In this document: positions 816-48,100 of the stretch, piece by piece
How positions within the stretch are numbered: the first letter of the stretch is position 1
How the letters are laid out: each line of letters opens with the position of its first letter
NCBI GenBank assembly: GCA_020849895.1
Contig: JADZFN010000052.1
Coordinates: 5,797-69,796, forward strand
Origin: Verrucomicrobiia bacterium
GTDB taxonomy: Bacteria > Verrucomicrobiota > Verrucomicrobiia > JABWAM01
Length of the DNA stretch: 64,000 bases
Direction of reading: 5' to 3'
Position numbers and translations under genes: made by a program
Notes under the pieces: model-generated
Databases searched by the model: none
Seen by the model: only the letters and a program-made list of their open reading frames with translations
Told to the model about the DNA's origin: nothing

Positions 816-907
816 GGGAGCGACGGAGAGAGGGCGCGCGGAGGACCGGCCGCGCGATCGGGAAACGCCGCCTTCGTTTTCGCGGCCATTGAGGAAATCC
901 GGCCCCG

Positions 908-1726
908 CTACGAACGGCCGCGGGAAGAGGGCGCGGCGGAGGCGTAGGCACTGGCGCGCGCAGCGTAATCGCGGATCCCCTCGGCGATCGCCCGAGCGAG
1001 CTTCTCCTGATGGGCTTCCGTGGTGATGCGTACGCCCTCCTCAGGGTTCGAGAGGAAACCGGCCTCGATGAGCACCGCGGGAATCGGACTCTGGCGGAGA
1101 ACGACGAACCATGCCTCCTTGACGCCTCGGTTGGCCAAGCCGGGAATTTCCTCGAGACGCGCGCCGATGCATCGAGCGAGAGTCAAATTGCTCGGACGCG
1201 CATCGTTGACGGTCGCGTAGCCGGAGGGCGCACGGGAACCCGCCGTCGAACGCCCGCCCCGACGCGGCATCACGTAGATCTCGAACCCATGCGGGCGGCG
1301 ATGAGCGGCGGAAAGTTTCTTGGCCTGCTGCTTCGACGAACTGCGATTGAAATGGATGCTGACGAAGATCCAGTCGCGATACTCGGGGTGCGACGCGATG
1401 GCCGTCCGCTCCTCGAGAGTCAGGAAGGTGTCCGAATTCCGCGTCAAAACCGTGCCGAACCCCGCCTGGCGCAGATGGGAGGCGGTCTTGCGGGCGACGG
1501 CAAGCGTGCCGGTCTTTTCCTTGAAACCACCGGCAGCGATTGCGCCCCAACACTCCTCGCGGGAGCCCTCCGGAGGATTTCCTCCGTGACCGGCGTCGAG
1601 AATCACGCCGCGCACCGGCGCGAGCGGACCGTTGTCCGAGGAGTCCGTGGTGACGCACCCCGACAGCAAAACGAGCAAACTCGATCCCGCAACCGCGGGG
1701 AATGCGCGGAAAAGCGTGTGATGCAT
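908..1726 (-). CDS. N-acetylmuramoyl-L-alanine amidase (AmiC/Amidase_3 family), lipoprotein
   Basis: Amidase_3-like motifs (GVILDAGHGG, EAGFLSNPEE). Internal Met followed by lipobox-like signal (LLVLLSGC). Upstream extension in the track is probably not translated. Confidence 0.7.
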   Translation of the reverse strand: MHHTLFRAFPAVAGSSLLVLLSGCVTTDSSDNGPLAPVRGVILDAGHGGNPPEGSREECWGAIAAGGFKEKTGTLAVARKTASHLRQAGFGTVLTRNSDTFLTLEERTAIASHPEYRDWIFVSIHFNRSSSKQQAKKLSAAHRRPHGFEIYVMPRRGGRSTAGSRAPSGYATVNDARPSNLTLARCIGARLEEIPGLANRGVKEAWFVVLRQSPIPAVLIEAGFLSNPEEGVRITTEAHQEKLARAIAEGIRDYAARASAYASAAPSSRGRS

Positions 1727-2001
1727 AAGGCCCCATACCCACATTCCGCTTGAAAGGCAATGCCGAGAAGCGAAAAAAAACAAGGCGAGTTCCGCTTCCC
1801 AGCATCAGGAAAATCCATGGCGCCGCCAGGCGCAGGCGATGCGCCGCTGGCGGCGGGAATCCCATGGACCTCGACACGTCGCGCAACGGCGAACGGCGGC
1901 GGAGAGGGCCTGTCGGCAGATTCCCTCGTGTCGCACACCCGAATCGTTCGGTTTCCGAAATGCCCTTTGCGCGCCGAAAGGACCTGCGGCATAGTGAAGC
2001 C

Positions 2002-2940
2002 ATGTCCGATCCGAAGCTCGTCGAAAACATCCTTCGCTCCTACCGCGAGCATGGGGGAATCAACCATCTCGACGGCGCCAATCTCCCTTCCCGCGAGGCG
2101 GTGGCCGACATCCTCCGCGATTTGCTTCGCCTCGTCTTTCCCGGCTTCTACGGCCACGCCGCCCTCCCCTCCGATCAGATCGCTGACGGCGTCGCCGAAA
2201 CGCTCTCCTCCGTCTCGCGCAAGCTGGTTCGAGAGATCCGCAAGAGCCTGGAATACCGGCGGCCCGCGCCGGCGACAGACGGCCGGGACCTGAACGTCCC
2301 CATCGAAGCTCGACGGATCGCGGAGGATTTCCTCGCCGATCTTCCCCGTATTCGCGAGCTGTTGGCGTCGGACGTGCAGGCGGCGTACGAAGGCGATCCG
2401 GCCGCGATGAGCCACGACGAAGTCATCGTCGCCTATCCGGGACTCAAGGCGATCGCCGTCCAGCGCATGGCGCATCAACTCTATCAGGCGCGCGTCGCGC
2501 TCATCCCGCGGATGATGACGGAATGGGCGCACTCGCGCACTGGAATCGACATCCATCCGGGCGCCCGGATCGGCAACCGCTTCTTCATTGATCACGGAAC
2601 GGGCGTGGTGATCGGCGAGACCACCGTGATCGGCACCGGGGTGAAGATCTATCAGGGTGTTTCCCTCGGCGCAAAGAGCTTTCAAAAAGACCCCTCCGGA
2701 CGCCTAGTCAAAGGCACCAAACGCCATCCGGACGTCGAGGACGGAGTGACGCTCTACGCGAACGCCACCATCCTCGGTGGCGACACGACGATCGGCGCGC
2801 GCTCGACGATCGCGGCGAACGTCTTTCTCACCCGTTCCGTGCCGCCGGACTCCCTGGTCTTCTACGAGGAGGCGGACCTCCGCATCGTTCCGAAACGACG
2901 CGCGGGCGGCGAAGCCGTTGCGTTCGATTACGCGATCTGA
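2002..2940 (+). CDS. cysE: serine O-acetyltransferase (long form with N-terminal SATase_N domain)
   Basis: Hexapeptide-repeat left-handed beta-helix C-terminus (IHPGARIGNRFFIDHGTGVVIGETTVIGTGVKIYQGVSLG) and SATase N-terminal motifs (ILRSYREHGG). ATG at 2002 chosen over the long upstream extension. Confidence 0.85.
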   Translation: MSDPKLVENILRSYREHGGINHLDGANLPSREAVADILRDLLRLVFPGFYGHAALPSDQIADGVAETLSSVSRKLVREIRKSLEYRRPAPATDGRDLNVPIEARRIAEDFLADLPRIRELLASDVQAAYEGDPAAMSHDEVIVAYPGLKAIAVQRMAHQLYQARVALIPRMMTEWAHSRTGIDIHPGARIGNRFFIDHGTGVVIGETTVIGTGVKIYQGVSLGAKSFQKDPSGRLVKGTKRHPDVEDGVTLYANATILGGDTTIGARSTIAANVFLTRSVPPDSLVFYEEADLRIVPKRRAGGEAVAFDYAI

Positions 2941-2952
2941 CGGCGCCGCCGG

Positions 2953-3621
2953 TCAGAAGCGGTAGCCGAAAGTCAGCTGCGGCCCGGCGGCATCGAGCGA
3001 ACGATTCTTGCGGGCGGGCTCCGAAAGGCCGCCGTTCGAGAAGTGGGTGTAGTTGCCCGCCAAACGCAGGAACCACGATGGACTGATGTCGTAGCGAAAC
3101 CCCAGCCCGATGCCGAAGTTGAAGCAGAAGTCCTGCCCTTGGCCCTGCTGCCCCTTCGAGAGATCGGTATAGCCCCGGGAATCGGCGAAGCCGAACCCGA
3201 CGTTGCCCTCGATGAAGGGGACGATATCCCAACCGGGCTGGACGAAGTTGTAGCGCGGGCCGTACTGCATTCCCACGAAGCGATCTTCGATCCCGCTCTT
3301 GACCGCCATGCCGAACCCACGAAAGACGAACTCGGTGTATCCGCGGAGGATGCCGTCGAGCTCCTTGTCCATCGAGATGTCGTCCAGCTTCAGCGACAAG
3401 GTGAGCTCCGCGGGAACGAGGGTGTATCCCTTGTTGTTCGTGCGGATGTCCGAAACCAAAATACCGGTTCCGGTCTCAAGGGAGAGGTCGTAGTCCTTGG
3501 CGACGTCGGAAGACTTGACCGATCCGAGGCGCGCCTTCCTGACGGCGAGCGCATCGTCCGCCTGAAGGGCGTAAGGGGCCAGAGCCAACGACAGCACGAG
3601 GAAGAAGATGGGAGTTTTCAT
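2953..3621 (-). CDS. outer-membrane beta-barrel, lipid A 3-O-deacylase PagL-like (acyloxyacyl hydrolase)
   Basis: Signal peptide, alternating beta-strand pattern, C-terminal aromatic residue (…FGYRF), and HFSNGG motif resembling the PagL HxSNG catalytic motif. Confidence 0.55.
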   Translation of the reverse strand: MKTPIFFLVLSLALAPYALQADDALAVRKARLGSVKSSDVAKDYDLSLETGTGILVSDIRTNNKGYTLVPAELTLSLKLDDISMDKELDGILRGYTEFVFRGFGMAVKSGIEDRFVGMQYGPRYNFVQPGWDIVPFIEGNVGFGFADSRGYTDLSKGQQGQGQDFCFNFGIGLGFRYDISPSWFLRLAGNYTHFSNGGLSEPARKNRSLDAAGPQLTFGYRF

Positions 3622-10713: not shown

Positions 10714-10853
10714 CGGGACGCCAAGGCTTGCCGAGCGGCCGCCTGCGTTCAAGCCCATCGGCAGAACGCACGAACCTCCTCCCGCATCCGCCGAAGGCGA
10801 CGGCCGACTTTTTTGTCGCGCGCCTCCGGCAGACGGGGCATAAGGGAGGCCGC

Positions 10854-12176
10854 ATGTTCGAGCACCAAAAAAGCGTCAAAAAACCGGCGTCCGTCGAGGG
10901 AGTCGGCCTCCACACCGGCGCGCCGGCGCGCCTCACCTTCCTGCCTGCCCCCGCGAACTCGGGCCTCCGTTTCACGCGCGCCGACCTTCCCGGCAGCCCC
11001 GCCCTTCCCGCCCTGGTCAGCCTGGTCCAGGACACTCAACGCGGCACCACTCTCGGACAGGACGGCGTGAGCGTCCACACCGTCGAACACGTCCTCGCCG
11101 CGCTCGCCGGACGCGGCATTGACAACTGCCTCATCGAACTCACCGGCCCGGAGCCGCCCATCCTCGACGGCAGCGCGCGCGACTTCGCCGTCGCCCTCAA
11201 GGACGCGGGCACGGAAAACCTCAACGCGAAGCCGAACACCTTCGCCCCCGAGGCGCCCGTGTATTACGCGAAAGACGGGACGACGCTCGTCATCCTTCCC
11301 TCGGACCGCCTCCGGATCTCCTGCTCGATCCATTTTCCCGGACAGAAACTCGAAAGCCAGCACTACACGCTCGACATCACCGACGAGACTTTTGAAACCG
11401 AACTCGCCCCCGCGCGCACCTTCTGTTTCTACGAGGAGGTGAAGCCGCTCATGGACGCCGGCCTCATCAAGGGCGGAAGCCTCGAATGCGCCGTCGTCAT
11501 CAAGGACGACGAAATTCTCAGCAAGGAGGCGCTTCGTTTCCGCGACGAATTTGTCCGCCATAAGATGCTCGACATCCTCGGCGACGTGACCCTGCTCGGC
11601 CGCCCGTTGGCGGGCCACATCGTGGCCGTCCGACCCGGACACGCCGCGAACGTCGCTCTCACTCAAAAGCTCTTCAACATCGTCAACAAAAAGCGTGGGG
11701 CGCGCCGCTATCTCGCCGAAGGGGCGACCTACGAGCAGATGGACATCCAGGAACTGCTGGCCACCCTGCCGCACCGCTACCCGTTCATCCTCGTGGACCG
11801 CATCCTCAAAATCGAGGAGACGGAGATCGTCGGCCTGAAGAACGTGACGATCAACGAACCGTTCTTCCAAGGGCATTTTCCCGGGCATCCCATCATGCCG
11901 GGCGTGCTCCAGGTCGAGGCGATGGCCCAAGTCGCCGGCATCCTCATGCTCCGCAAGGGCGACAGCGTCGGCAAGCTCGCCTACTTCATGAGCGCCGACA
12001 AGGTGAAGTTCCGCAAGCCGGTGACTCCCGGCGATACCCTCTTCATCGAGGTGGCCCTGCTCAAGGCGCGCGCGGGCCGCATCGGCCGCGCCCAGGCCCG
12101 TTGCCTCGTGGACAATGAGGTCGTCAGCGAAGCCGAGCTGATGTTCTCCATCATGGACCGCGAAACCACCGAGTGA
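10854..12176 (+). CDS. lpxC/fabZ: bifunctional UDP-3-O-acyl-GlcNAc deacetylase / 3-hydroxyacyl-ACP dehydratase (LpxC-FabZ fusion)
   Basis: N-terminal LpxC motifs (GVGLHTG, HTVEHVLAAL, zinc-site HKMLD) fused to a C-terminal hot-dog FabZ domain (HFPGHPIMPGVL…). ATG at 10854. Confidence 0.9.
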   Translation: MFEHQKSVKKPASVEGVGLHTGAPARLTFLPAPANSGLRFTRADLPGSPALPALVSLVQDTQRGTTLGQDGVSVHTVEHVLAALAGRGIDNCLIELTGPEPPILDGSARDFAVALKDAGTENLNAKPNTFAPEAPVYYAKDGTTLVILPSDRLRISCSIHFPGQKLESQHYTLDITDETFETELAPARTFCFYEEVKPLMDAGLIKGGSLECAVVIKDDEILSKEALRFRDEFVRHKMLDILGDVTLLGRPLAGHIVAVRPGHAANVALTQKLFNIVNKKRGARRYLAEGATYEQMDIQELLATLPHRYPFILVDRILKIEETEIVGLKNVTINEPFFQGHFPGHPIMPGVLQVEAMAQVAGILMLRKGDSVGKLAYFMSADKVKFRKPVTPGDTLFIEVALLKARAGRIGRAQARCLVDNEVVSEAELMFSIMDRETTE

Positions 12177-12231
12177 TCTCGGTCCTTCCGATTCCTCCCG
12201 AACCGCACCCTCTGCGCCCCAACCCCTTCCC

Positions 12232-13002
12232 GTGCTCCATAAGACCGCCATCGTCCACCGCGACGCTGAGGTGCCTGCCGATTGCGAGGTCGGTCCCTGG
12301 TGCGTCATCGGTGCGGGCGTCTCCCTCGGCGCGGGATGCATTCTCCGCTCCCACGTCATCCTCGAAGGGCCCAGTACCTTCGGCAAAAAGAACGAGTTCT
12401 ATCCCTTCTGCAGCCTCGGCCAGCGCTCTCAGGACCTGAAGTACGCCGGCGAACCCACGTTTCTCGAAGTCGGCGACGAGAACACCTTCCGCGAGTTCGT
12501 CACCGTCAACCGCGCGACCGCGAAAGGCGCGAAGACGACGATCGGCCACCGCAACCACTTCCTTGCCTACGCCCACGTGGCGCACGACTGCCTCCTCGGC
12601 GACGGGATCGTGATGTCCAACTGCGGGACGCTCGCCGGCCACGTCGTCGTCGAGAATCACGCCGTCGTCGGCGGTCTCGCCGCCGTGCATCAGTTTTGCC
12701 GCATCGGCACCATGGCGATCCTCGGAGGGTGCTCCAAGGTCGTACAGGACGTTCCCCCTTACATGCTCGCCGATGGCAATCCCGCCGAAGTCCGCACGAT
12801 CAACAAGGTCGGCCTCGACCGCCACGGTGTGGAGGACGAAGCCAAGAAAGCGCTCCAAGCCGCCTTCAAGCTCCTCTATCGCGAAAGCGGCCTGAATATC
12901 GGGGACGCTGTGGTGAGGATCCGCAAGGACCTCCCCGACCTCCCTGAAATCCGGCACCTCTGCGAATTCGTCGAGCGAAGCGAGCGCGGGATCAGCCGAT
13001 GA
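12232..13002 (+). CDS. lpxA: acyl-ACP:UDP-GlcNAc O-acyltransferase
   Basis: Hexapeptide-repeat beta-helix with the LpxA C-terminal helical domain. Immediately downstream of lpxC/fabZ. Confidence 0.9.
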   Translation: MLHKTAIVHRDAEVPADCEVGPWCVIGAGVSLGAGCILRSHVILEGPSTFGKKNEFYPFCSLGQRSQDLKYAGEPTFLEVGDENTFREFVTVNRATAKGAKTTIGHRNHFLAYAHVAHDCLLGDGIVMSNCGTLAGHVVVENHAVVGGLAAVHQFCRIGTMAILGGCSKVVQDVPPYMLADGNPAEVRTINKVGLDRHGVEDEAKKALQAAFKLLYRESGLNIGDAVVRIRKDLPDLPEIRHLCEFVERSERGISR

Positions 13003-13128
13003 AATCCCCACTTCCCTTGAGACCGTGAGGCGCCTCACTCGAGCGAAGCGCGAGGCCGCCGCCTCTCCCAAGGTGATCTCGGCCTCTGGGCGCTCCGCGC
13101 CGCCGGCGGAGCGAAAGCCCTCTCCTCC

Positions 13129-13767
13129 ATGTTCAAACGAATCCGAAACGCGCTGATCGGCAGGCTCGGCGGCCTCTTGGTCGCCGCCCTCGGCGCCACC
13201 CTCCGCTACCGGATCCGTGACACGGCCGCCGTCACGCGACCCTCGCCGCGTAAAGATCCCGTGATCTTCGCCTTCTGGCATCACGACCTCCTGCTGATGC
13301 CCTGTTTCGCACGCCGCTTCCTCACCCGCCGCCCGTGCGTGTGTCTCGTCAGCGCCAGCAAGGACGGCGAGATGATCGCGCACGTCCTGCACCGCTTCGG
13401 GCTCGACGCCGAGCGCGGCTCCAGCTCCCGCAAGGGGCGGGAGGCGTATCGCTCCCTCGCCGAAGCTCTCGAATGCGGAACGGATGTCGCGATCACGCCG
13501 GACGGCCCTCGCGGACCGCGCCATCACGCGCATGCCGGCGCTGCCGGGCTTGCGGTGCTCTCCGGCTGCGCGCTCGTTCCGATCCGCTGGCGCGCCGCGT
13601 GGAAAATCGAGTTGCCGACGTGGGACCGCTTCGTGATCCCGCTTCCGCTCAGCCGCGTCGAGTTCGACGTCGGCCCCGCCCTGCGTTTCGCGCCGGAGAC
13701 CTCCGTCGAAGAGGCGCAGCAACAGATGGAACGCGCGCTGGCTCCGCCCCCGACCCGCACCCCATGA
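13129..13767 (+). CDS. lysophospholipid acyltransferase-like DUF374 family protein
   Basis: FWHHDLL motif (HX4D-like) of the LPLAT/DUF374 family commonly found in lipid A/Kdo gene neighbourhoods. Confidence 0.5.
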   Translation: MFKRIRNALIGRLGGLLVAALGATLRYRIRDTAAVTRPSPRKDPVIFAFWHHDLLLMPCFARRFLTRRPCVCLVSASKDGEMIAHVLHRFGLDAERGSSSRKGREAYRSLAEALECGTDVAITPDGPRGPRHHAHAGAAGLAVLSGCALVPIRWRAAWKIELPTWDRFVIPLPLSRVEFDVGPALRFAPETSVEEAQQQMERALAPPPTRTP

Positions 13768-13807
13768 CGCGCGCGACGCGTTTCCGCAAGGCGCGTCCCC
13801 GATCGGG

Positions 13808-15238
13808 TCAGGCGTCGCGTGCCAGAGTTTGAAGGATCCGGCCGGAGGCGTCCTGAAGCTCGATGACCATCGGCATCTGGCCGGCGGCGTGGGTGGAACA
13901 GGAGAGGCAGGGGTCGTAGCAGCGGATCGCCGCCTCGACGCGGTTGAGCATGCCTTCCTTCAGCGCCTGCGCCTTCACATATTTCCTGGCCACCGAAAGG
14001 ACGGAGCGATTCATCGCGAGATTGTTGTGTCCCGTGGAAACGATGAGGTTGGCCTTCTCGATCCGTCCGTGCTCGTCCACCCAATAATGATGGATCAACG
14101 TGCCGCGCGGGGCTTCGATCACGCCGACTCCTTCCTCGTTCTTGGGCGAGCCACCGGCCACGAGGTCGCGCCCCAGGATCGCGGGGTCTTCGAGCAGCGC
14201 GCGCGCGCGCTCAAGTCCATAGATGATCTCGATGAGGCGCGCCCAGTGGAAGAAGAACGATCCGCGGCGCACGGGGCCGTCGGCGCGCCACGCCTGAAAC
14301 TCCTTCTGCGCCTCGGGCGTCGCGATCCGCGAGGCGACGTTGAGGCGCGCCAGCGGCCCGACGCGATACATCCCCTGAGGATAGCCCAGCGCCTTGATGA
14401 AGGGGAACTTGAGATAGGACCACGGCTCCGTTGTTTCCGCGATCACCTCGAGGTAGTTCGCAGGAGGGACGTTGTCCTTGATCGGACGCCCTTCAGGATC
14501 GGTAAAGCGCATCGCGCCGTCATAAAGCTCGAGGGCGCCGTCGGATTGGACGAGCCCCTCGTAGTTGGAGTCGAAGCTGGCGAAGCTCTCGACCTCCTCA
14601 CGGTGGGTCGCGTGATACTTTTTGATCAGGTCGAGCGCGAGGCGGGCGGATTCGAAAGCCTCGGAAAAACCGTCGAGCAGCGCCTTGCGCTCGCCCTCGG
14701 CAAGGGCTTTGTTCACGCCTCCGGGGACGTTGAAGTCGGGATGGATTTTTCGCCCGCCGACGGCGCGGATGATCTCCTGTCCGAACTTGCGGAGTCGGAT
14801 GCCGCGGCGCGCGAGCTCAGGATGCTGCTGGATAAGGCCGACGACGTTGCGGGTGGCGGGGTCGCTGTCGTAACCGAGGAGGAGATCGGGCGCGCTGAGA
14901 TGGAAGAAGCTCAGGGCATGGGACTGGACGACCTGCCCCATGTGCATCAACTCGCGAAGCATCTTCGCCGTGGGAGGGATCCGGACGCCGAGGATGGCGT
15001 CGCACGTCTTGGCGCTGGCGAGGAGATGGCTGACGGGACAGATCCCGCAGATCCGCGCGGTGATCTGGGACATCTCGGCGAAGTAACGGCCTTCGCAAAA
15101 CTTTTCGAAGCCGCGGAACTCGACGACGTGAAAGCGCGTGTCGGCGACCTCGCCGGTCTCGTCGAGGTGAATCGTGATCTTGGCGTGGCCCTCGATGCGG
15201 GTCACAGGGTTGATGGTGAGCGTGCGGGCGGCACTCAT
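13808..15238 (-). CDS. hoxH: [NiFe] hydrogenase large subunit, group 3 (HoxH/HydL-like)
   Basis: N-terminal L1 motif [10 protein letters not shown] and C-terminal L2 motif DPCLSCSTH, followed by a ~23-aa extension (target of maturation protease). Confidence 0.9.
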
Positions 15239-15288
15239 GGGGAGAAGCGGGGAGGATCGAAGGGGGGAATGGGGGTTCAGAAGGGGCG

Positions 15289-15828
15289 TCAATCGTAGCG
15301 GACGTTTGTTTCGTTCCACAGAGGCTTGCGGCCGGCGAGGAGTTCGGTGAGGGCGTACCAAATCGCGTCGGCATCCGGAGGACAACCGGGGATGTAGGCG
15401 TCCACCTTCACGAACTCCTGGATGGGGCGCACCTTGGGGCAAAGGGGCGGCACGATCTCGGTGGGGATTTCACCGGCCTGGGTGCTCTCGGTTTCGATGT
15501 AACCGCGTGCGAGGACTTCGCCGAGGTCCTTCTGGTTGCGCAGGGCGGGCACGTTGCCGGTGATCGCGCAGTCGCCGAGGGCAACGAGGACCTTGCACTG
15601 TTTTCGGAGCGTCTTGAGGACGTGCGCGTTCTCCTCGTTACAGACGGCGCCCTCGACAATCCCGACGTCCACGGGCGGGATATCCTTGAGGTCGCTGATC
15701 GGGCTGGCGGTCAACTCGACGAGCTTGAAGAGCTCCACGAGGCGTTCGTCGAGATCGAGAAAGGACATGTGACAGCCGGAACATCCGCCCAGCCACACCG
15801 TCGCCACTTTCACTTTGAGTTTTTCGCT
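15289..15828 (-). CDS. hoxY: [NiFe] hydrogenase small subunit, group 3 (HoxY/HydS-like)
   Basis: WLGGCSGCHMS…GDCA…GCPP cysteine pattern of a single proximal [4Fe-4S] cluster. ~180 aa. The ATG shares one nucleotide with the stop of the upstream gene. Confidence 0.85.
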   Translation of the reverse strand, partial: SEKLKVKVATVWLGGCSGCHMSFLDLDERLVELFKLVELTASPISDLKDIPPVDVGIVEGAVCNEENAHVLKTLRKQCKVLVALGDCAITGNVPALRNQKDLGEVLARGYIETESTQAGEIPTEIVPPLCPKVRPIQEFVKVDAYIPGCPPDADAIWYALTELLAGRKPLWNETNVRYD

Positions 15829-17630
15829 CATGCGTAAATGCTTTCTAGGATATCGGCGTCGTCCCGGGCCTGGCCGCGCGGAGTCAGCGCGGGGCGCAGC
15901 GGGAGCTTTCGCCCTTCGAAATTCGTGATCGTGCCGCTCCGTTCGCTCCAGGCAAGCGCGGGCAACACCACGTCGGCCAGCTCGACGAGGCGGGAGAAGT
16001 AGGCCGTCTGCAGGACCACGAACTCCATGGCCTTGAGGCAACCGGCGACCTCGCGCTCGCGCAGGATGCGGGCGCCGCCGGCGGGTTCGTCCGCGGCACA
16101 GACATGGACGGCGCGCAGGGGGGCGCTCGCGAACCACCGGGAGAGGTCGTCCACGGCTTCGACGCCCGCCGCCGAAAGTGCGAGGGCGTTGGTCGTGGCG
16201 GGCAAGCCGATCACGGACGGCCCGCAGTCGGCGTCGAATGTCTTCAGGAGCTTCTCCATGGCGGCGACGCCGAGGGAGGTCATCGCGTTCGGCCCATAAA
16301 TCAACACCGGCTTGCGGCGTCCTTTGAGGACGTCGGCCACCCGCTTCCAGAAGGCGCGTTCGAGGCCGACCATGCGCGACGAAATATCGGCATAGGCATC
16401 GAGGTCGCTGGAGCGCACGTTCAGCATCACCAGCTTTGCGCCGCGCTTGCGGACGGCGACACGGATGCGGGCGGCGACGACGCCCTGGAGGCGAGCGGGA
16501 TCGGCGCCAAGCAGGACGAACGCATCGGCTTCCTGGAGGAGCGGAAAAACGTCGCGGGCAGCGCCAGGGTCGCCGCACATCGCGGCCTCATTCTCGGCCA
16601 CATACATCCCGACGCTGCTGACGGAGGGACGGATCTTCGCGAGCGTCTCCGCCGCCTCGTTCGTGAGGCGGCCGGAGACGAGCAGCCCCTTTTCTCCAGA
16701 CTTCAACCCTCGGGTGGCCGCGCGAATCGCCGCAAGAGCCTCGTCCCAAGCGACGGGCGCGAGCGCGCCGTTCCGTCGGACCATGGGTTCGGTGAGGCGC
16801 TCTCGCTTGACGGCCCAGGTTTCGTAGCGGCCGCGGACGCAGAGGTGGCCTCGGTTTACGGGCGAGTCGCCATCGCCGAAAACGTCTACGATGCGGTCGT
16901 CCATCGTGTACACGACGAGACCGCAGCCGACGGGGCATTCCGCGCAGGTCGTGCGCACCTGGGCGCACCTCTTGAGCGCCCCGTGAAAGGCGGCGTTCTT
17001 GTCGAAGAGGGCGCCGGTGGGACAGGCGGAGACGCAGGCGCCGCAATGGGTACAGGTGGTCGAAGCGCCGAAGGTGGAGTTGAGGTCCACGATCACCTGA
17101 CTCTTGACGCCGCGGTTGCCGAGATCGAGCGTGTGGGCGCCTTCGATCTCGTCGCAGGTGCGGATGCAGCGGGCGCAGAGGATGCAGCGGTTGTGGTCGA
17201 GCCCGAGATATTTCCCGGTGAGATCCACAGGAAGCGCGGGATAAAGATAGGGGAAGCGGATGCCATCAATGCCGAACTTGTAACCGCTCATCTGAAGCTC
17301 GCAGTCACCCTTGTTCATCGGGCAGATGGGGCAGATGTGGTTGCGTTCGCTGAAGAGGAGCTCCAGCGTGAGCTTGCGCAGGCGGTCGAGACGCTCGTTT
17401 TTGGTGACGACTACACTGCCGTCGGCGGCGGGCGTGGCGCAGGAAGGAACCGGCTTGGCGATGCCGCCGACCTCGACGATACACATGCGACAGCCGCCCC
17501 ACGGGGAGAGCTCCTTCATGTGGCACAGCGTCGGGATCTCGATGCCACTGGCGGTGGCGACTTCGAGAATGGTCTGCCCGGCGGCGCCGGCGCAGATCTT
17601 TCCGTCAATGGTGAGGGTGAGCGTCTTCAT
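15828..17630 (-). CDS. hoxU: NuoG-like iron-sulfur subunit (HoxU/HydA-like) with truncated molybdopterin-oxidoreductase domain
   Basis: N-terminal [2Fe-2S] (CHMKE…CRMC), His-ligated [4Fe-4S] (HICPICP…C), 2x[4Fe-4S] (CILCARCIRTC, CTHCGACVSACP). These are followed by a Molybdop_Fe4S4-like CAECPVGC motif and a ~330-aa NuoG-type C-terminal domain. No H-cluster motifs. Confidence 0.8.
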   Translation of the reverse strand: MKTLTLTIDGKICAGAAGQTILEVATASGIEIPTLCHMKELSPWGGCRMCIVEVGGIAKPVPSCATPAADGSVVVTKNERLDRLRKLTLELLFSERNHICPICPMNKGDCELQMSGYKFGIDGIRFPYLYPALPVDLTGKYLGLDHNRCILCARCIRTCDEIEGAHTLDLGNRGVKSQVIVDLNSTFGASTTCTHCGACVSACPTGALFDKNAAFHGALKRCAQVRTTCAECPVGCGLVVYTMDDRIVDVFGDGDSPVNRGHLCVRGRYETWAVKRERLTEPMVRRNGALAPVAWDEALAAIRAATRGLKSGEKGLLVSGRLTNEAAETLAKIRPSVSSVGMYVAENEAAMCGDPGAARDVFPLLQEADAFVLLGADPARLQGVVAARIRVAVRKRGAKLVMLNVRSSDLDAYADISSRMVGLERAFWKRVADVLKGRRKPVLIYGPNAMTSLGVAAMEKLLKTFDADCGPSVIGLPATTNALALSAAGVEAVDDLSRWFASAPLRAVHVCAADEPAGGARILREREVAGCLKAMEFVVLQTAYFSRLVELADVVLPALAWSERSGTITNFEGRKLPLRPALTPRGQARDDADILESIYA

Positions 17631-19441
17631 GCGGGCACCGGGATTCCCGGAGAGGTTTTTTTCACGGCGTCGAACTTGCATACGTCGAAGCAGGCGCCGC
17701 AGTGGATGCATTTCTCCTGATGGATGATGAACTTCTTTTGGTCGCCGAGGCGCTCGATGGTCTGCACGGGGCAGGCGCGGGCGCAGAGCGAGCACCCCTT
17801 GCAGAGGGGCACATCAATTTCGAAGTGCACCAGCTCGCGGCAGGCGCACGCCGGGCAGCGCTTCTCGCGGATATGGGCCTCGTACTCGTCGCGGAAATAC
17901 TTGAGGGTGGTGAGCACGGGGTTGGGCGCCGTCTGGCCGAGGCCGCAGAGGCTGGCGGACTTCACCATGTCGGCAAGCTCCTCGAGCTTCGCGATGTCCT
18001 CGGGCTCGCCCTCGCCGCGACAGATCCGTTCGAGGATGAGGAGCATCTGGCGGGTGCCGACGCGACAAGGAGGACATTTTCCGCACGATTCGTCGCAACA
18101 GAACTCCATGAAAAATCGGGCGAAATCCACCATGCAGGAGTCCTCGTCCACAACGACCATCCCGCCCGAACCCATGATCGAGCCGAGCTTCTGAAGCGTC
18201 TCGTATTCGACGGGGGTATCGAGAAACTGCTCCGGAATGACGCCACCGGAGGGGCCGCCGGTCTGGATGGCCTTGAGCTTTTTCCCGTTGGGGATGCCGC
18301 CGCCGACCTCGTAAATCATCTGGCGCAGCGTGGTGCCGAAGGGGAGCTCGGCAACCCCCGTGTTGTTGATCTTGCCGGCGAGACAGAAGACCTTGGTGCC
18401 CTTGGTGTTTTCCGTGCCGATCGAGGCGAACCATTCCGCCCCTTTAAGAAGGATCGGACGGATGGTGGCCCAGGTCTCGACGTTATTGATGTTGGTGGGC
18501 TTTTCCCACAGCCCGCGTTGGGCGGGGAACGGGGGGCGCGGAGAAGGCTGACCGCGGCGCCCTTCGACGCTGCGCATAAGGGCGGTCTCCTCGCCACAGA
18601 CAAAGGCGCCGGCGCCGATGCGGACCTCGAGATCGAAGTCGAATCCGGTCTCGAACAGGTTCTTGCCGAGCAGGCCGAGCCGGTAGGCCTGTTCGATGGC
18701 GATATGGAGGCGCTTGACGGCGAGGCCGTACTCGGCGCGGATGTAGACATACCCTTGGTGGGCGCCCATCGCGTAGGCGCCGATGGCCATCCCTTCGATG
18801 ACGCTGTGCGGATCGCCTTCGAGAACGGAACGGTTCATGAAGGCACCGGGGTCGCCCTCGTCGGCGTTGCAGACGACATACTTGGGATGGAGGGGCGCCT
18901 TGCGCATTAACCCCCATTTTCGCCCCGTCGGAAACCCCGCGCCGCCGCGCCCGCGCAGACCGCTCTCTTCGATCTCCGCGATCACTTCCTCCGGCGTCAT
19001 CTGGGTGAGCGCCTTGCCGAGGGCGAGGTAGCCGTCGCGGGCAATGTATTCCTCGATCTTCTCGGGATTGATCACGCCGCAGTTGTCGCGGACGATGCGA
19101 AGCTGGCGGTTGAAGAACGTGAAATCGGCCTGCGTCTTGACGAGATGTTGGGTTTCAGGATCGGTGGGCAGGAGCTTCTCGTAGCGGCGGCCCTTGAGGA
19201 AATGCTCTTCGACAAGCTGGGGGATCTCCGCGGTCTTGACGTTCTTGTAGAAGGTGCCGTCGGGATGGATCATCGAGACGGGACCGAGATCGCAGCGGCC
19301 CATGCAGCCGGTCTCGACGACGTCCAGCTCCTCCGAAAGGCCGCGCTTCGCCAGTTCAGCGAGGAGGGCGTCGCGAGTCTGGAAGCTGCCGGCGCTGGCG
19401 CAGCCGGTGCCGGTGCAAACGAGGATGTGGGTGCGTTTCAT
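17627..19441 (-). CDS. hoxF: NAD(H)-binding flavoprotein subunit (NuoF-like; HoxF/HydB-like) with N-terminal Trx-like [2Fe-2S] and C-terminal 2x[4Fe-4S] domains
   Basis: N-terminal VCTGTGC…GCMGRCDLGP (thioredoxin-like Fd). NuoF core (GRGGAGFPTGRKWG; C-x2-C-x2-C-x40-C 4Fe-4S motif CDESCGKCPPC). C-terminal CKGCSLCARACP and CIHCGACFDVC ferredoxin motifs. Confidence 0.85.
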   Translation of the reverse strand: MKRTHILVCTGTGCASAGSFQTRDALLAELAKRGLSEELDVVETGCMGRCDLGPVSMIHPDGTFYKNVKTAEIPQLVEEHFLKGRRYEKLLPTDPETQHLVKTQADFTFFNRQLRIVRDNCGVINPEKIEEYIARDGYLALGKALTQMTPEEVIAEIEESGLRGRGGAGFPTGRKWGLMRKAPLHPKYVVCNADEGDPGAFMNRSVLEGDPHSVIEGMAIGAYAMGAHQGYVYIRAEYGLAVKRLHIAIEQAYRLGLLGKNLFETGFDFDLEVRIGAGAFVCGEETALMRSVEGRRGQPSPRPPFPAQRGLWEKPTNINNVETWATIRPILLKGAEWFASIGTENTKGTKVFCLAGKINNTGVAELPFGTTLRQMIYEVGGGIPNGKKLKAIQTGGPSGGVIPEQFLDTPVEYETLQKLGSIMGSGGMVVVDEDSCMVDFARFFMEFCCDESCGKCPPCRVGTRQMLLILERICRGEGEPEDIAKLEELADMVKSASLCGLGQTAPNPVLTTLKYFRDEYEAHIREKRCPACACRELVHFEIDVPLCKGCSLCARACPVQTIERLGDQKKFIIHQEKCIHCGACFDVCKFDAVKKTSPGIPVPA

Positions 19442-19803
19442 TTCTTGGCTTTGCCCACGGCGAGGCCTTCGACGACCTTGCCCTTTTCGAGGTGTTCGGT
19501 GACGATCTTGCGGGCGTCGGCGGCGTTCACCTTGGCGTAGGTCACCTGTTCGCCGCCGGCCTCTTCGATGCGGATGATCGGCTCGACGTCCACGAGGCCG
19601 ATCTCACCGGTGATGGCGACTTCCACGTCGTCGAGGCCGCGCTTGTCAATTTCGTCAAGCATCGTCGTCATGACGTCGCGGGCGCCCGCGGCGATGCCGG
19701 AGGTGCCCATGCTGAAGACCACGCGGTATTTCTTGTGGCCTTCGCGCAGGGCGACCTGCCGCTGGGCCTTTTCCTTGAGTTTCTTGAGTTCGTCGAGGTT
19801 CAT
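19438..19803 (-). CDS. thioredoxin-like ferredoxin-fold protein lacking all cluster-ligating cysteines
   Basis: Aligns to HydD-type Trx-like [2Fe-2S] ferredoxins (YRVVFSMGTSG… vs Y+V.VC.GTGC) but contains zero Cys. 4-nt ATGA-type overlaps on both sides. Confidence 0.55.
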   Translation of the reverse strand: MNLDELKKLKEKAQRQVALREGHKKYRVVFSMGTSGIAAGARDVMTTMLDEIDKRGLDDVEVAITGEIGLVDVEPIIRIEEAGGEQVTYAKVNAADARKIVTEHLEKGKVVEGLAVGKAKK

Positions 19804-20279
19804 GCGGGAGACGGGAGGTTGAGGTCGGTTTGGGAGTCGAAAGCGAAGGTCTCCTCCGCGGCGCGGCAGGCGACGCGCAGGCGGGCGCCCGGGGCGGCGA
19901 GGGCGAGGGCGCGAACCGTGGCGGCAAGATCGCCGAGGGGCGGACGGTCCACATGGGAGAGGCGCATGCGGGCGGCGACCACGGTGCCGTGCCCGGGGAG
20001 GGATGCGGCGCGGAAGCGGCCTTCGCAGGCCTCGGCGGCTTGACGGAGGAAAGCGAGTCCGAGGCCGACGGCCCTGCGCCGGCCGGTCTTGGTGCTCCCG
20101 CGTCCGGAGAGCGCGCGGACGAAGGCTGCGCGGCCCATGCCGCGGCCGTTGTCGCGCACAAGCAGCGCGAAACGGTCGCGCGCCCGGTCTTCGCTCACGC
20201 GAATGGAGATCGAGGTGGCGCCTGCGGCAAGGGAGTTCATGCCGAGATCCAGGATATGGAGTGAAAGTTCCTCATGCAT
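19800..20279 (-). CDS. histidine-kinase-like ATPase (HATPase_c) domain protein
   Basis: G1 box DNGRGM and G2 box GLGLAF of the GHKL ATPase fold. No DHp/receiver domains. Embedded between hoxE-like and Fd-like genes. Confidence 0.6.
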   Translation of the reverse strand: MHEELSLHILDLGMNSLAAGATSISIRVSEDRARDRFALLVRDNGRGMGRAAFVRALSGRGSTKTGRRRAVGLGLAFLRQAAEACEGRFRAASLPGHGTVVAARMRLSHVDRPPLGDLAATVRALALAAPGARLRVACRAAEETFAFDSQTDLNLPSPA

Positions 20280-20781
20280 ACTTCTTGAGATCCTTCTGAC
20301 AAAATCTCGGAATTTTGTCGGGGGCGAGTTTGCCGTAGACATCCTCACCCACCGTGATGGCCGGCGCGAGCGCGCAGGCGCCGATGCAGCGCGCAGTGTG
20401 CAGGCTGAAGAGGCCGTCCTTGGTGGTCTGCCCCTCCTTGATGCCGAGCTGTTGCCCGAGGCGCTCAACCACGGTCGGCGCGCCGCGCACGTGGCAGGTG
20501 GTGCCGGTGCAGACCATGATCTGGTATTTCCCCCTCGGAACGATGGAGAAGAAATTGTAGAACGTGGTCACCCCGTGGACGTGCGAGGGCGACAGCTTCA
20601 TCGCGGACGCGATGTAGCGGAGCACGTCGGGCGCGAGGTAGCCGAAGGTGTGCTGCGCGGCGTGGAGGATCTGGATCAGGGCCGTCGGCTCGTGGCGGTA
20701 ATGCGCGATCGTCTGGTCGAGCTGCGCGAAGCGTTGGTCGCCGCTGGGGTGATGAGGGAGGTTGGGGGCGGTTGAATTCAT
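20272..20781 (-). CDS. hoxE: NuoE-like [2Fe-2S] subunit (HoxE/HydC-like)
   Basis: Thioredoxin-like NuoE fold with CTGTTCHVRG…CIGACALAP cysteine pattern. ATG at 20781. Confidence 0.8.
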   Translation of the reverse strand: MNSTAPNLPHHPSGDQRFAQLDQTIAHYRHEPTALIQILHAAQHTFGYLAPDVLRYIASAMKLSPSHVHGVTTFYNFFSIVPRGKYQIMVCTGTTCHVRGAPTVVERLGQQLGIKEGQTTKDGLFSLHTARCIGACALAPAITVGEDVYGKLAPDKIPRFCQKDLKKYA

Positions 20782-21101
20782 AAGAGTTCCCAGAGCTTGC
20801 CGGCGGCTTCGAAGGTGGTGAGCGGCGTGCTCAACAAGACAACCTCCTCCTCCGCGGCCTTGGCGACGACCGCCGGATCGGGTTGGCGCCCGCAGGTGAT
20901 CAATACGCCGGCAACATCTTTCATCGCCGCCACGGAGACGACGTTCCGATGGGTCTGAAGAGTCACCCAAAGCGCGCCGGGTCGGGCGTGCGCGAGGACG
21001 TCGCTGAGGAGGTCGGAGATGTAGCACCCGCGCACCTCGACCTCGGGCGAGCCTGAGATCACACGGGCGTCGAGCCGGGAAAGGGTGTCGGCGAGTTTCA
21101 T
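20778..21101 (-). CDS. DRTGG domain protein
   Basis: Small (~107 aa) protein with DRTGG-like core (VLITCGRQPD). 4-nt overlaps with flanking genes. Confidence 0.5.
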   Translation of the reverse strand: MKLADTLSRLDARVISGSPEVEVRGCYISDLLSDVLAHARPGALWVTLQTHRNVVSVAAMKDVAGVLITCGRQPDPAVVAKAAEEEVVLLSTPLTTFEAAGKLWELL

Positions 21102-22051
21102 GGCGCGCGGGCAGGCTGGAGGAGCACCTCGGCGTGCAGGCGGGTGCCGTTGGCAAGGTCGGATTTGATGTCCAGTTGATCGGTGGACCGGCGGATGTTG
21201 GGGAGACCCATGCCGGCGCCGAAGCCGAGCTTCCGCGCCAACGGACCGGCGGTGGACCAGCCTTCCCGCATGGCAAGATCGAGATCCTCGATGCCCGGCC
21301 CCTGATCCACAGCCTCGATCGTGACGCGGTCCGCGCCGACGGTGGCCGTGAGGCGGCCGCCGAGGGAATGGATGATCATGTTGGTCTCGGCCTCGTAGGC
21401 GATAATCGTGGCGCGGCGGCGAATGCTGGGCTCCACGCCCCGGGCGCGAAGGATCTGGCGGAGGCGCTGGGAAAGCTTGCCGGCGCTGTCGAAGTCTCCC
21501 GCGCGCACCTCAGCGTTAAGGATGAAACGGCGGTGGGGCTCGTCCGGAACCGCGGCGGCGGTGCGCTCGGCCTCCTTGCGCACGGCTTCCTCAGCGCGGC
21601 GTTCGAGATGGTGCATGAGGGCGCCGGTGATGTCGCCGCGGGTGATGATTCCGACGAGACGGTCGCCGACATCCAGGACAGGGAAACGCCCGAAGTCGAA
21701 GCGGTCGAACTCGGCGACGGCGCGGACGAGGGAGTAGTGGTCGCGCATGACGACCGGATGGCGGGTCATCCGCGCCTCGGCGGGATCGTTGATGTGGCCT
21801 TGGTCCAAGGCGTGGACGATGTCCTCGATGCTGACGAGGCCGAGAAGCGCGCTGTCCCGGGTGATGGGGACGCCCGAGATGCGGTGCTCCTTCATGAGGA
21901 GCTGGATGCTGCGGAGGGAATCGCGGGGGCTGGCGGTGCGAAGCCTGCAGGTCATCGCGTCGCGGACGCGGAGCTCGTAGACGAGCGCCTGAGCGAGGGA
22001 GACGCCGGCCGCGTCGCGGCGGGGCGTCAGGTTCTCGGTGCGCGGGTTCAT
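21098..22051 (-). CDS. CBS-pair + HATPase_c (anti-sigma-factor/serine-kinase-like) regulatory protein
   Basis: Two CBS modules (ISGVPIT…, GRFPVLDVGDRLVGIIT) followed by a GHKL ATPase with EAVDQGPGI and GFGAGMGL boxes. First gene of the hydrogenase operon. Confidence 0.65.
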   Translation of the reverse strand: MNPRTENLTPRRDAAGVSLAQALVYELRVRDAMTCRLRTASPRDSLRSIQLLMKEHRISGVPITRDSALLGLVSIEDIVHALDQGHINDPAEARMTRHPVVMRDHYSLVRAVAEFDRFDFGRFPVLDVGDRLVGIITRGDITGALMHHLERRAEEAVRKEAERTAAAVPDEPHRRFILNAEVRAGDFDSAGKLSQRLRQILRARGVEPSIRRRATIIAYEAETNMIIHSLGGRLTATVGADRVTIEAVDQGPGIEDLDLAMREGWSTAGPLARKLGFGAGMGLPNIRRSTDQLDIKSDLANGTRLHAEVLLQPARAP

Positions 22052-22122
22052 GGGGAGGAAAAAACAAAGGCTCGACGCACGGCGCGGGCAGCGAAGGGCT
22101 GGCGCGCGATCGGGCGTTTCAT
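22048..22122 (-). CDS. candidate 24-codon upstream ORF/leader peptide (MKRPIARQPFAARAVRRAFVFSSP)
   Basis: Strong SD (AAAAGAGGAGA) 7 nt upstream of ATG. Its TGA overlaps the ATG of the CBS-HATPase gene (ATGA), which itself lacks any SD. Confidence 0.3.
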   Translation of the reverse strand: MKRPIARQPFAARAVRRAFVFSSP

Positions 22123-22249
22123 GCGAAAGTCTCCTCTTTTAAGCTAATCATTCTTTTTTTGAAGATTAGACAATCTGAACAATGATGCAAGCATAATCCG
22201 GCGCGTCGAAAATCTCGCGCGAACGCCCCGAAAAAGACGCGGCGGACAG

Positions 22250-23038
22250 CTAGGAGCTGGCGCTGGTGTAGAAACGCAGGCCGAAGCGAAACCAGACTCG
22301 CGCGAGGGCGAGAAACGCGAGGGTGAGAAGGAAAATCCATGTCGCGCCGGACCCGATGACTCCCCGGGCGAGGACCTGGGCGGGAAAGTTCGCCACCACG
22401 AGCATTGGCAGCACCCAGGTGAAAAGGACCTTCGCCGCACCGCGAAAGGCCTCGCGCGGCATCCGCGCGATGTTGAAGAGGTTGTAGTATCCGTAGACCA
22501 ACCCTTGCGCGCGGACGATCCAGAAGGCGAGCGTGACGATCATGAGCATCAGCGCGTAGTGGAGGAAGACGCCGTTGAGGACCATGAGGGCGTAAAGCCC
22601 GAGCTGCCACGGCGCCGGACGCAACCCGAGCTTCCAGGCGGCCCAGGCGACGAACGCGACGCCGATTGCGCAGTTGACCACCGAACCGGGATCGTATTTC
22701 CGGATCGAGACGAGAAACTGCGGACTCGCCGGCTGGAGCAGGGCGAAATCCAGCTTCCCCGTCCGCACGTTCTCGGGAAACTCGATGAGGTTGACGAGAA
22801 ACGCGACTTGGAAGATCTGCTGCACGAGGTGGCTTGTCCCGACCAGCATGACCATCTCGTATTTCGTCCAGCCAGCCACCTCCGTCACGTGCGCGAAGAT
22901 CACCTCCACGAGGGCGAGTTGAAGTCCGAGCCATGCGATCTCGACGACGATCCAGAGGAGAAAGTTCGCCTTGAACATCATCTCCCGCGCCAGCGAGTAG
23001 CGGAAGAGGGCGAAGGCGAGGCGGAGGTAGCGGCGCAT
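22250..23038 (-). CDS. ABC-2 family transporter permease
   Basis: 6 TM helices with ABC-2/DUF990-like organisation. Paralogous to the next gene. Confidence 0.6.
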   Translation of the reverse strand: MRRYLRLAFALFRYSLAREMMFKANFLLWIVVEIAWLGLQLALVEVIFAHVTEVAGWTKYEMVMLVGTSHLVQQIFQVAFLVNLIEFPENVRTGKLDFALLQPASPQFLVSIRKYDPGSVVNCAIGVAFVAWAAWKLGLRPAPWQLGLYALMVLNGVFLHYALMLMIVTLAFWIVRAQGLVYGYYNLFNIARMPREAFRGAAKVLFTWVLPMLVVANFPAQVLARGVIGSGATWIFLLTLAFLALARVWFRFGLRFYTSASS

Positions 23039-48017: not shown

Positions 48018-48100
48018 TGCCCGGGGCAGGAATCGAACCTGCACGGCCTTGCGGCCAGGGGATTTTAAGTCCCCTGCGTCTGCCTTTTCGCCACCCGGGC
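48018..48100 (-). tRNA. tRNA-Leu (anticodon UAA)
   Basis: Cloverleaf folded by hand: acceptor GCCCGGG/CCCGGGC, 3-bp D-stem, anticodon stem GGGGA/UCCCC with loop CUUAAAA, 15-nt class-II variable arm (GGCC-GCAA-GGCC), T-arm GCAGG-UUCGAUU-CCUGC. CCA not encoded. Confidence 0.8.

Follow-up and report, generated by a model that had tools for sequence, protein, structure and literature searches.

A candidate electron-bifurcating NiFe-HydABCSL hydrogenase operon with four conserved accessory genes in a Verrucomicrobiae genome

The best-described relative of the system reported here is the NiFe-HydABCSL hydrogenase of Acetomicrobium mobile (PDB 7T2R and 7T30), which has been purified and requires NAD+ in order to reduce ferredoxin with H2 (Feng et al. 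2022, PMC8880783). Its operon comprises five subunit genes (Anamo_1675-1678 and 1681) together with HydD, HisK and HydP (PMC8880783; PMC9304861, Fig. 1 legend). A 2022 census, from which metagenomic data were excluded, counted six such NiFe-Bfu enzymes, in Synergistetes and Euryarchaeota only (PMC9304861 supplement). Published criteria for the Bfu family are complete B1-B5 sites in BfuB, C1 in BfuC, a His-containing B2 and specific residues of the NADH/flavin mononucleotide (FMN) domain (PMC9304861). Here, we analyzed a 64,000-nt stretch of Verrucomicrobiia DNA (contig JADZFN010000052.1, positions 5,797 to 69,796; the whole stretch is hereafter the window), whose minus strand carries a nine-gene hydrogenase operon. 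Judged from its genes, the locus probably codes for a NiFe-HydABCSL hydrogenase (NiFe-Bfu, Type 3), heteropentameric and cytoplasmic, together with four accessory/regulatory proteins.

Nine consecutive co-directional open reading frames (ORFs) occupy positions 13808-22051, as identified by ORF reading combined with Pfam and NCBIfam searches (Table 1). An earlier sequence-only reading had listed these genes in their order of transcription; the order held, and the domain content claimed for each gene was confirmed by the two databases. Its description of a hydrogenase fused to a diaphorase was incorrect, the modules being separate genes, and its account of linkage by 1- or 4-nt overlaps was right in part. 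Six junctions, including hydA/hydS and both ends of the DRTGG gene, are 4-nt ATGA overlaps; none of the operon's junctions is a 1-nt overlap, the overlap between the HydC and GHKL genes is 8 nt long, and hydS and hydL lie 50 nt apart. Through the ATGA overlaps, the operon genes are translationally coupled. Third-position GC is 0.79-0.85 in the HydL, HydA, HydB and CBS-kinase frames, the four operon frames that passed the filter and to which this figure applies, as is usual for real genes in the window. Gene content, gene order, homology and the conservation of all cofactor ligands can be read directly from the locus, as detailed below.

The NuoF-like subunit, HydB (BfuB), carries FMN and NAD(H) sites. 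Pfam analysis revealed 2Fe-2S_thioredx (residues 3-79), Complex1_51K, SLBB, NADH_4Fe-4S and a Fer4 dicluster (542-595), in agreement with the N-terminal thioredoxin-like [2Fe-2S] domain and C-terminal 2x[4Fe-4S] domain that had been predicted for it. Its best PDB match is A. mobile HydB, 7T2R_B (870 bits, E 1e-260, 62% identity). Ligand sets are present for B5 (C9/14/46/50), B1 (C453/456/459/499) and B3/B4 (C547-557 and C578-588), and the B2 ligands C436/C474/H523/C529/C534 correspond to A. mobile C438/C476/H525/C531/C536. Across the Bfu family, B2 is defined by A. mobile C438, C531, C536 and H525, with position 476 variable (PMC9304861); this fifth ligand is Cys in just 205 of 1558 Bfu sequences (PMC9304861 supplement), and the window HydB, like A. 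mobile, has Cys (C474) there.

The Bfu-specific NADH/FMN residues, namely A. mobile F182, A202, M204 and the Phe of GAGAFVCGEE (PMC9304861), are likewise retained. HydB contains the motifs GGAGFPTG, DEGDPGAFMNRS and GAGAFVCGEE; F182 is kept, A202 and M204 are kept inside DEGDPGAFM, and the Phe is kept in GAGAFVCGEE. These motif residues also occur in cyanobacterial HoxF and are non-discriminating alone. The sequence-only reading had named both terminal domains of HydB as hallmarks of bifurcation; of the two, the C-terminal B3/B4 domain, together with the B2 site, does discriminate, whereas the N-terminal [2Fe-2S] domain is also kept by cyanobacterial HoxF. The C-terminal 2x[4Fe-4S] domain is the presumed ferredoxin-reducing site. 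HydC retains Cys 91/96/132/136 as the C1 [2Fe-2S] ligands; its best PDB match is 8A6T_C (148 bits), with 7T2R_C at 124 bits, and its top matches are all HydC/NfnC chains of bifurcating enzymes.

HydA (BfuA), the NuoG-like subunit, contains Fer2_4, NADH-G_4Fe-4S_3, Fer4_Nqo3, Molybdop_Fe4S4 and a truncated Molybdopterin domain (278-598). Neither Molydop_binding nor a Fe-hydrogenase (PF02906-type) domain was found by Pfam, and a motif search found none of the H-cluster motifs TSCCP, MPCxxK and ExMACxxGC. The description of HydA as a 600-residue NuoG-type subunit with a truncated molybdopterin domain and without an H-cluster therefore stands by both searches. The best PDB match is 7T2R_A (365 bits, E 6e-108), with 43% identity across 417 aligned N-terminal residues, followed by a formate dehydrogenase alpha subunit (212 bits). 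Complete ligand sets were found for A1 (C36/47/50/64), A2 (H98/C100/103/110) and A5 (C229/232/236/264), and two CxxCxxCxxxC motifs (C149-159 and C193-203) supply A3 and A4. A role for HydA as a formate-dehydrogenase-like catalytic subunit was rejected: Molydop_binding is absent, the PF00384 match is weak and truncated, and the best match is the non-catalytic 7T2R_A.

For the [NiFe] module, HydS best matches 7T2R_E (197 bits, E 2.4e-57, 54% identity), with 5XF9_C second at 158 bits. Its Cys 17/20/88/150 align with cysteines of 7T2R_E, and medial and distal clusters have no room in HydS because it is only 180 residues long; it is accordingly short enough to be read as carrying a single, proximal [4Fe-4S] cluster, as its alignment predicts. 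HydL best matches 7T2R_D (593 bits, E 3e-177), followed by the group 3d chain 5XF9_D (456 bits) and the Mvh-type 5ODC_F (413 bits). Both CxxC Ni-Fe binding motifs are present, the C-terminal one as DPCLSCSTH, and a 26-residue C-terminal extension follows it, of the kind cut off by a maturation protease.

The 50-nt hydS-hydL spacer and the placement of the modules on separate genes would suit two independent neighboring enzymes, one a NADH:ferredoxin oxidoreductase resembling HydABC and the other a HydSL hydrogenase. We regard this arrangement as hardly credible, given that hydA and hydS overlap by ATGA, that HydS with only a proximal cluster needs a relay partner, that the five A. mobile subunits purify together and form one complex in the solved structure (PMC8880783), and that the A-S-L gene order is invariant in about 45 loci with a long HydA.

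Collectively, the claim that this architecture is that of the characterized NiFe-HydABCSL enzyme was borne out: A. mobile chains are the best solved relatives of HydL, HydS, HydA and HydB (four of the five subunits), the A. mobile order hydC-hisK-hydD-hydB-hydA-hydS-hydL equals window genes 3-9, and all five B2 ligands are shared. Both systems also have all cluster ligands in common, a one-cluster HydS, and a HydA with A1-A5 and without an H-cluster. They differ in several respects. Identity is only 43-62%; HydA has 600 residues in the window versus 692 in A. mobile; the window has two extra upstream genes (CBS-GHKL kinase and DRTGG); its HydD is Cys-less; HydL belongs to a different sub-clade; and the host is a high-GC Verrucomicrobiae metagenome-assembled genome (MAG), as opposed to a moderately thermophilic Synergistete. 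On sequence grounds, the shorter HydA, the two extra genes, the Cys-less HydD and the lack of a protease gene in the operon would leave the catalytic and bifurcation core untouched.

Comparison with [FeFe] HydABC enzymes (7Q4V, 8A6T, 7P5H) indicates a BfuBC core common to both, HydB being nearly as similar to 7Q4V_B (850 bits) as to its A. mobile counterpart (870 bits). In [FeFe] HydABC, catalysis takes place at the H-cluster in HydA, whereas in the window enzyme it would lie in a separate HydSL module; the bifurcation chemistry is presumed to be the same. The second-best solved relative of HydL and HydS is the NAD-reducing HoxFUYH of Hydrogenophilus thermoluteolus (5XF9; 456 and 158 bits), which likewise has a one-cluster small subunit. 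That enzyme is non-bifurcating, its HoxF lacks C1 and B2-B5, and its HoxU is short (PMC8880783). The 5XF9_B match is limited to HydA residues 5-216.

Among protein clusters built at 90% identity, more than 120 have at least 70% identity to HydL, those named by NCBI all being Verrucomicrobiae/Verrucomicrobiota; the breadth of this set argues for purifying selection. HydL itself is identical to a Verrucomicrobiae MAG protein deposited at NCBI from a 77-kb contig, which confirms the Verrucomicrobia-type host that had been proposed. A scan of GTDB species genomes yielded 80 loci (designated with L numbers), which were annotated using the window's nine proteins, and at least 10 species representatives carry the locus. 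Throughout the clade, all ligands of B2-B5 and C1 are kept, as are the FMN/NADH residues specific to Bfu enzymes.

Four architectures were distinguished. In the first, a long HydA accompanies a HydB with a ferredoxin-type C-terminus, as in Verrucomicrobiota (L002, L004, L007, L009, L015), UBP4 (L010) and Planctomycetota (L013, L014, L016); the full nine-gene arrangement of the window is kept in L002, L007 and L015. The second combines a long HydA with a HydB of about 1020 residues, in which the C-terminal 2x[4Fe-4S] domain is swapped for a GltD/NfnB-like Fer4_20 plus Pyr_redox_2 module; it occurs in Verrucomicrobiota (L003, L005, L008, which otherwise hold the window's gene set), Dehalococcoidia, some Planctomycetota and a Bacillota MAG. 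The third, found in Anaerolineae (L022, L025, L037, L062, L065, L070, L071, L078), places two HydB/HydC pairs 5' of a long HydA-HydS-HydL, plus accessory genes; one HydB is of Bfu type with B3/B4, and the other is complex-I-like (DESEPGTFKDR, GAGAYICGEE) with its B2 ligands kept. The fourth is the classical HoxEFUYH type of Cyanobacteria and others, in which HoxU has about 235 residues and HoxF about 515-560. The hydB of a Verrucomicrobiae MAG (L006:4478-6331) is frameshifted and split over several frames, so that it is either a pseudogene or the product of an assembly error. L003 (DATJOW010000167.1) is labelled Candidatus Acidoferrum (Acidobacteriota), yet its HydL lies deep in the Verrucomicrobial clade beside L005/L006 with an identical operon structure, which points to mis-binning or recent transfer.

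The GltD-fused siblings share HydC, HydA, HydS, HydL and the B1, B2 and B5 sites with the window, and the Verrucomicrobial ones share its four accessory genes as well; their HydB suggests a variant of the long-HydA NiFe enzyme that is linked to NAD(P)H. With this swap in L003, L005 and L008, partner choice appears plastic in this lineage, and an NfnAB-like pair adjoins the operon in L002. The window could then encode a bifurcating enzyme of the same build that works with other partners, such as NADP(H) rather than NAD(H), or flavodoxin or a different low-potential carrier rather than ferredoxin. We consider this unlikely: in the window HydB, the NADH motif is of the A. mobile type and the C-terminus is a 2x[4Fe-4S] domain, not a GltD-like module, and both the A. 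mobile and the Synechocystis enzymes are NAD-specific (PMC8880783; preprint 10.64898/2026.06.25.734504).

Gene context in the relatives fits ferredoxin-linked fermentative metabolism. In L007, the gene immediately 5' of the operon (837-3047) encodes an ADP-forming acetyl-CoA synthetase, and the same is probable for L015, judging by its matching upstream sequence; adenylate kinase, HypF and HypD lie downstream in L007 (12241-17543), and the NfnA/NfnB-like pair of L002 lies downstream of HydL (12124-14443). In the window, the operon adjoins none of these genes. Record names suggest that several of the fetched relatives derive from peat or soil metagenome projects, and the window's own genome is taken to be of a soil or peat type.

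The subunits of cyanobacterial HoxEFUYH (group 3d) are homologous to those of the window enzyme throughout (HoxE/HydC, HoxF/HydB, HoxU/HydA N-terminus, HoxY/HydS and HoxH/HydL). Its HoxF keeps the B5 cysteines, DEGDPGAFM and GAGAFVCGEE, like window HydB, and differs in its length of about 515-525 residues and its lack of the B2 ligands and the B3/B4 domain (L021, L031, L032, L038 and others). HoxU, at about 235 residues, lacks the molybdopterin-like domain of the 600-residue HydA, and classical Hox loci have no GHKL, HydD, CBS or DRTGG genes. The fetched loci (HoxU about 230-240, HoxF 510-560 residues) thereby corroborate the view that classical Hox has a short HoxU and no C-terminal ferredoxin domain on HoxF. 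Several short-HoxU lineages, namely FCPU426, Elusimicrobia, Omnitrophica, Caldilinea and Nitrososphaeria (among L027, L045, L058, L041, L066, L043, L059), keep the B2 Cys/His without B3/B4.

Phylogenetic analysis of HydL was performed by neighbor-joining only, with a bootstrap of 100 and rooting on paralogous large subunits of the same loci. The Verrucomicrobial clade received 100/100, with a long HydA in every member, and Verrucomicrobiota plus UBP4 received 88/100. HydL does not nest inside canonical group 3d, the placement that the sequence-only reading held to be incompatible with its proposal: the classical short-HoxU clade is monophyletic (85/100) and the window lies outside it, as sister group.

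The locus could nonetheless be read as a conventional, non-bifurcating NAD(H)-linked Hox-like group 3d hydrogenase whose extra HydB clusters and long HydA are baggage or an electron reservoir. Large subunits of this kind are deposited as 'NAD-reducing hydrogenase large subunit' (also as 'Ni/Fe hydrogenase subunit alpha'), HydL is about as similar to cyanobacterial HoxH as to A. mobile HydL, and the Verrucomicrobial clade groups with classical Hox in the tree. We judge this reading to be quite unlikely, as clade-wide retention of the B2-B5 and C1 ligands and the Bfu residues is unexpected for unused sites, and HydB and HydA are closest to a proven bifurcating enzyme. Moreover, both bifurcation and confurcation with NAD(H) and ferredoxin have been reported for purified Synechocystis HoxEFUYH itself, which lacks the C-terminal domain (June 2026 preprint, 10.64898/2026.06.25.734504). 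The contrast drawn earlier, in which Bfu-type enzymes bifurcate and group 3d enzymes do not, is consequently weaker than had been assumed. Bifurcation may be general to the HoxE/HydC-containing enzymes of this radiation, and the report renders the prediction for the window locus safer and less surprising.

Several observations weigh against a NiFe-Bfu assignment or temper it. HydL is 59% identical to A. mobile HydL in pairwise comparison and 56-59% identical to cyanobacterial HoxH, and so is no closer to the former. In the tree, classical Hox groups with the long-HydA lineages of Verrucomicrobiota, UBP4 and Planctomycetota (85/100), with A. mobile elsewhere among the long-HydA forms. HydA is about 90 residues shorter than its A. 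mobile counterpart, and its N-terminal part is about 43% identical. The hydP protease gene of the A. mobile operon has no counterpart in the window operon, and neither hyp maturation genes nor a hydrogenase C-terminal endopeptidase gene was found among the approximately 45 ORFs scanned in the 64-kb window, although the HydL tail is cleavable; the genes for these functions must lie elsewhere in the genome. No ferredoxin, pyruvate:ferredoxin oxidoreductase (PFOR) or Rnf genes are visible in the window. The regulatory model for the accessory genes (below) derives from domain annotation, and the enzyme is known from sequence alone in the window and its Verrucomicrobial homologues alike. Assignment to NiFe-Bfu is carried by HydA, HydB, the operon structure and the ligands, as HydL by itself does not favor A. 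mobile over HoxH.

For the NiFe-HydABCSL enzyme that we favor, we infer complex formation, bifurcating activity, specificity for NAD and ferredoxin, and physiological direction, with the individual steps modelled on the A. mobile enzyme (PMC8880783, PMC9304861). H2 would be split at the Ni-Fe site of HydL, and electrons would pass from the S1 cluster of HydS into HydA (A3, A2, A1) and on into HydB (B1, FMN). There they would bifurcate at the FMN, acting jointly with C1 of HydC, B5 and the penta-coordinate B2. NAD+ would receive hydride, while the low-potential electrons would leave C1 and, under conformational gating, reach ferredoxin by way of B2 and B3/B4. The reaction would be reversible, so that a fermenting cell could run it as confurcating H2 production from NADH and reduced ferredoxin.

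The four accessory genes hold the same positions across the Verrucomicrobial loci. They recur in Anaerolineae, together with one additional gene; in the double-pair loci there, DRTGG, GHKL and HydD are present, and the CBS-kinase is found wherever the contig reaches far enough upstream. The CBS-GHKL protein matches the NCBIfam spIIAB-like model at 218-306 and is identical to a deposited Verrucomicrobiae MAG CBS-domain protein (NCBI); in a homologue search, the matches listed were all close relatives, the named ones Verrucomicrobiae. This SpoIIAB/RsbW-like protein is a putative nucleotide-sensing regulator. The CBS-pyrophosphatase model NF011443 is matched at positions 69-124 by the CBS protein and at 143-240 by the DRTGG protein; judged from these matches, the pair resembles a split version of the adenine-nucleotide-sensing CBS-DRTGG insert of CBS-pyrophosphatases, plus a SpoIIAB-type kinase output. 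Both GHKL domains keep the ATP-binding N, G1 and G2 boxes. The gene 4 product is a bare GHKL domain without a DHp/His-phosphoacceptor domain, and A. mobile hisK holds the same operon position (PMC8880783, PMC9304861).

HydD matches, in phmmer searches, the N-terminal domains of NfnB 9N5U_B (E 3e-8) and of 7T2R_B (E 5e-7), and is a thioredoxin-like ferredoxin, devoid of Cys and paralogous to the N-terminal domain of HydB, which itself packs against the HydC C-terminal domain in A. mobile (PMC8880783). Its cluster-ligand positions are substituted, leaving zero Cys, in all Verrucomicrobial orthologues. Cys-less HydD also occurs in Brevefilum-type Anaerolineae and one other Chloroflexota locus (L022, L025, L062, L078), and the loss in the Brevefilum-type Anaerolineae is independent of the Verrucomicrobial one. 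HydD of other lineages keeps three Cys at the cluster-ligand positions, and the motif GMGTxGIAAGAR is conserved across all orthologues (L002-L078).

Based on their domains, the four accessory proteins probably act post-translationally to adjust how the enzyme is assembled or how active it is, according to nucleotide or energy status. A more specific proposal, which we hold to be rather doubtful, is that they form a dedicated post-translational control circuit in which the SpoIIAB-type GHKL kinase is driven by CBS and DRTGG as sensors of adenine nucleotides or energy charge, with HydD as a phosphorylatable decoy or adaptor gating the mobile C1 'switch' at the site of bifurcation. If true, this would be the first account of a mechanism that regulates a Bfu enzyme directly. 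The literature searched (DRTGG plus hydrogenase, NiFe-Bfu) yielded no description of the accessory module, and its conserved kinase-like genes offer a tractable lead on the regulation of such enzymes.

As an enzyme type, NiFe-HydABCSL is already known and structurally solved, and the window locus appears to be a further, apparently widespread, Verrucomicrobiota example. Searches on NiFe-Bfu and on Verrucomicrobia with bifurcating NiFe hydrogenases returned no description of Verrucomicrobial NiFe-Bfu enzymes. The only purified NiFe-HydABCSL is that of a thermophilic Synergistete, to which the window adds a conserved Verrucomicrobiota clade with every diagnostic ligand. The locus is a well-supported candidate for biochemical confirmation. 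Surveys of H2 cycling probably score such proteins as ordinary group 3d and miss the ferredoxin coupling; among MAGs from soil and peat, many proteins annotated as 'group 3d / NAD-reducing' are probably ferredoxin-coupled bifurcating enzymes. Furthermore, one NiFe core is found with a spectrum of diaphorases (ferredoxin-domain HydB, GltD-fused HydB, doubled HydB/HydC pairs and classical Hox), which helps to trace the relationship between bifurcating enzymes and Hox.

Table 1. Coordinates of the hydrogenase operon, other features of the window, and GltD-fused HydB genes in related loci
Feature	Position	Strand	Length	Basis or remark
Gene 1, CBS-GHKL kinase	21098-22051	-	317 aa	Pfam CBS pair (E 3.1e-19) and HATPase_c_2/HATPase_c
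Gene 2, DRTGG protein	20778-21101	-	107 aa	Pfam DRTGG (E 2.3e-9)
Gene 3, HydC (NuoE/HoxE-like)	20272-20781	-	169 aa	Pfam 2Fe-2S_thioredx (E 2e-50)
Gene 4, stand-alone GHKL ATPase	19800-20279	-	159 aa	Pfam HATPase_c (E 3.3e-10)
Gene 5, HydD (thioredoxin-like)	19438-19803	-	121 aa	Zero Cys; no Pfam match
Gene 6, HydB (NuoF-like, BfuB)	17627-19441	-	604 aa	Pfam domains
Gene 7, HydA (NuoG-like, BfuA)	15828-17630	-	600 aa	Pfam domains
Gene 8, HydS ([NiFe] small subunit)	15289-15831	-	180 aa	Pfam Oxidored_q6
Gene 9, HydL ([NiFe] large subunit)	13808-15238	-	476 aa	Pfam NiFeSe_Hases
5' leader with mini-ORF MKRPIARQPFAARAVRRAFVFSSP	22048-22122	-	24 codons	Read from sequence; status uncertain
LpxC joined to FabA/FabZ-like dehydratase domain	10728-12176	+		One ORF
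LpxA	12232-13002			Convergent with hydL
DUF374 protein	13129-13767			Convergent with hydL
tRNA gene	48018-48100	-		Rfam
Fe/Mn superoxide dismutase	48160-48948	-		
tRNA gene	50328-50399	+		Rfam
GltD-fused HydB, examples	L003:4480-7551, L005:4498-7569, L008:3172-6435, L012:4197-7391, and others			

Upstream of the first gene, the sequence-only reading had extended the operon to position 22122. This position lies 71 nt upstream of the first gene start and is the ATG of the mini-ORF MKRPIARQPFAARAVRRAFVFSSP, whose TGA shares nucleotides with the CBS-kinase start codon (ATG) and which is out of frame with the CBS-kinase gene. The mini-ORF is preceded by a strong Shine-Dalgarno-like motif, AAGAGGAG, and by an unusually AT-rich stretch (22129-22195). 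It is not conserved 5' of the orthologous gene in L002, L003, L005, L007, L008 and L015, and a conserved tenth gene at 22122-22048 was rejected on account of its absence in these six relatives. Scans of 13400-22500 gave 0 promoter-like sites and 9 terminator-like sites versus 6.8 expected, and an Rfam scan of the whole window recovered only the two tRNAs, with no riboswitch or leader RNA in the operon 5' region.

The operon is a discrete cluster. On its downstream side, it faces convergent lipid-A genes (LpxC-FabZ, LpxA and DUF374); above it, ABC-2 permease genes follow after a 198-nt spacer. A horizontally acquired island was rejected: the operon GC of 0.64-0.67 is like that of the flanking DNA, and the neighbors are housekeeping genes. 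Farther away, between the two tRNA genes, the window encodes a Fe/Mn superoxide dismutase, which suggests that the host tolerates oxygen although it carries an O2-sensitive hydrogenase.

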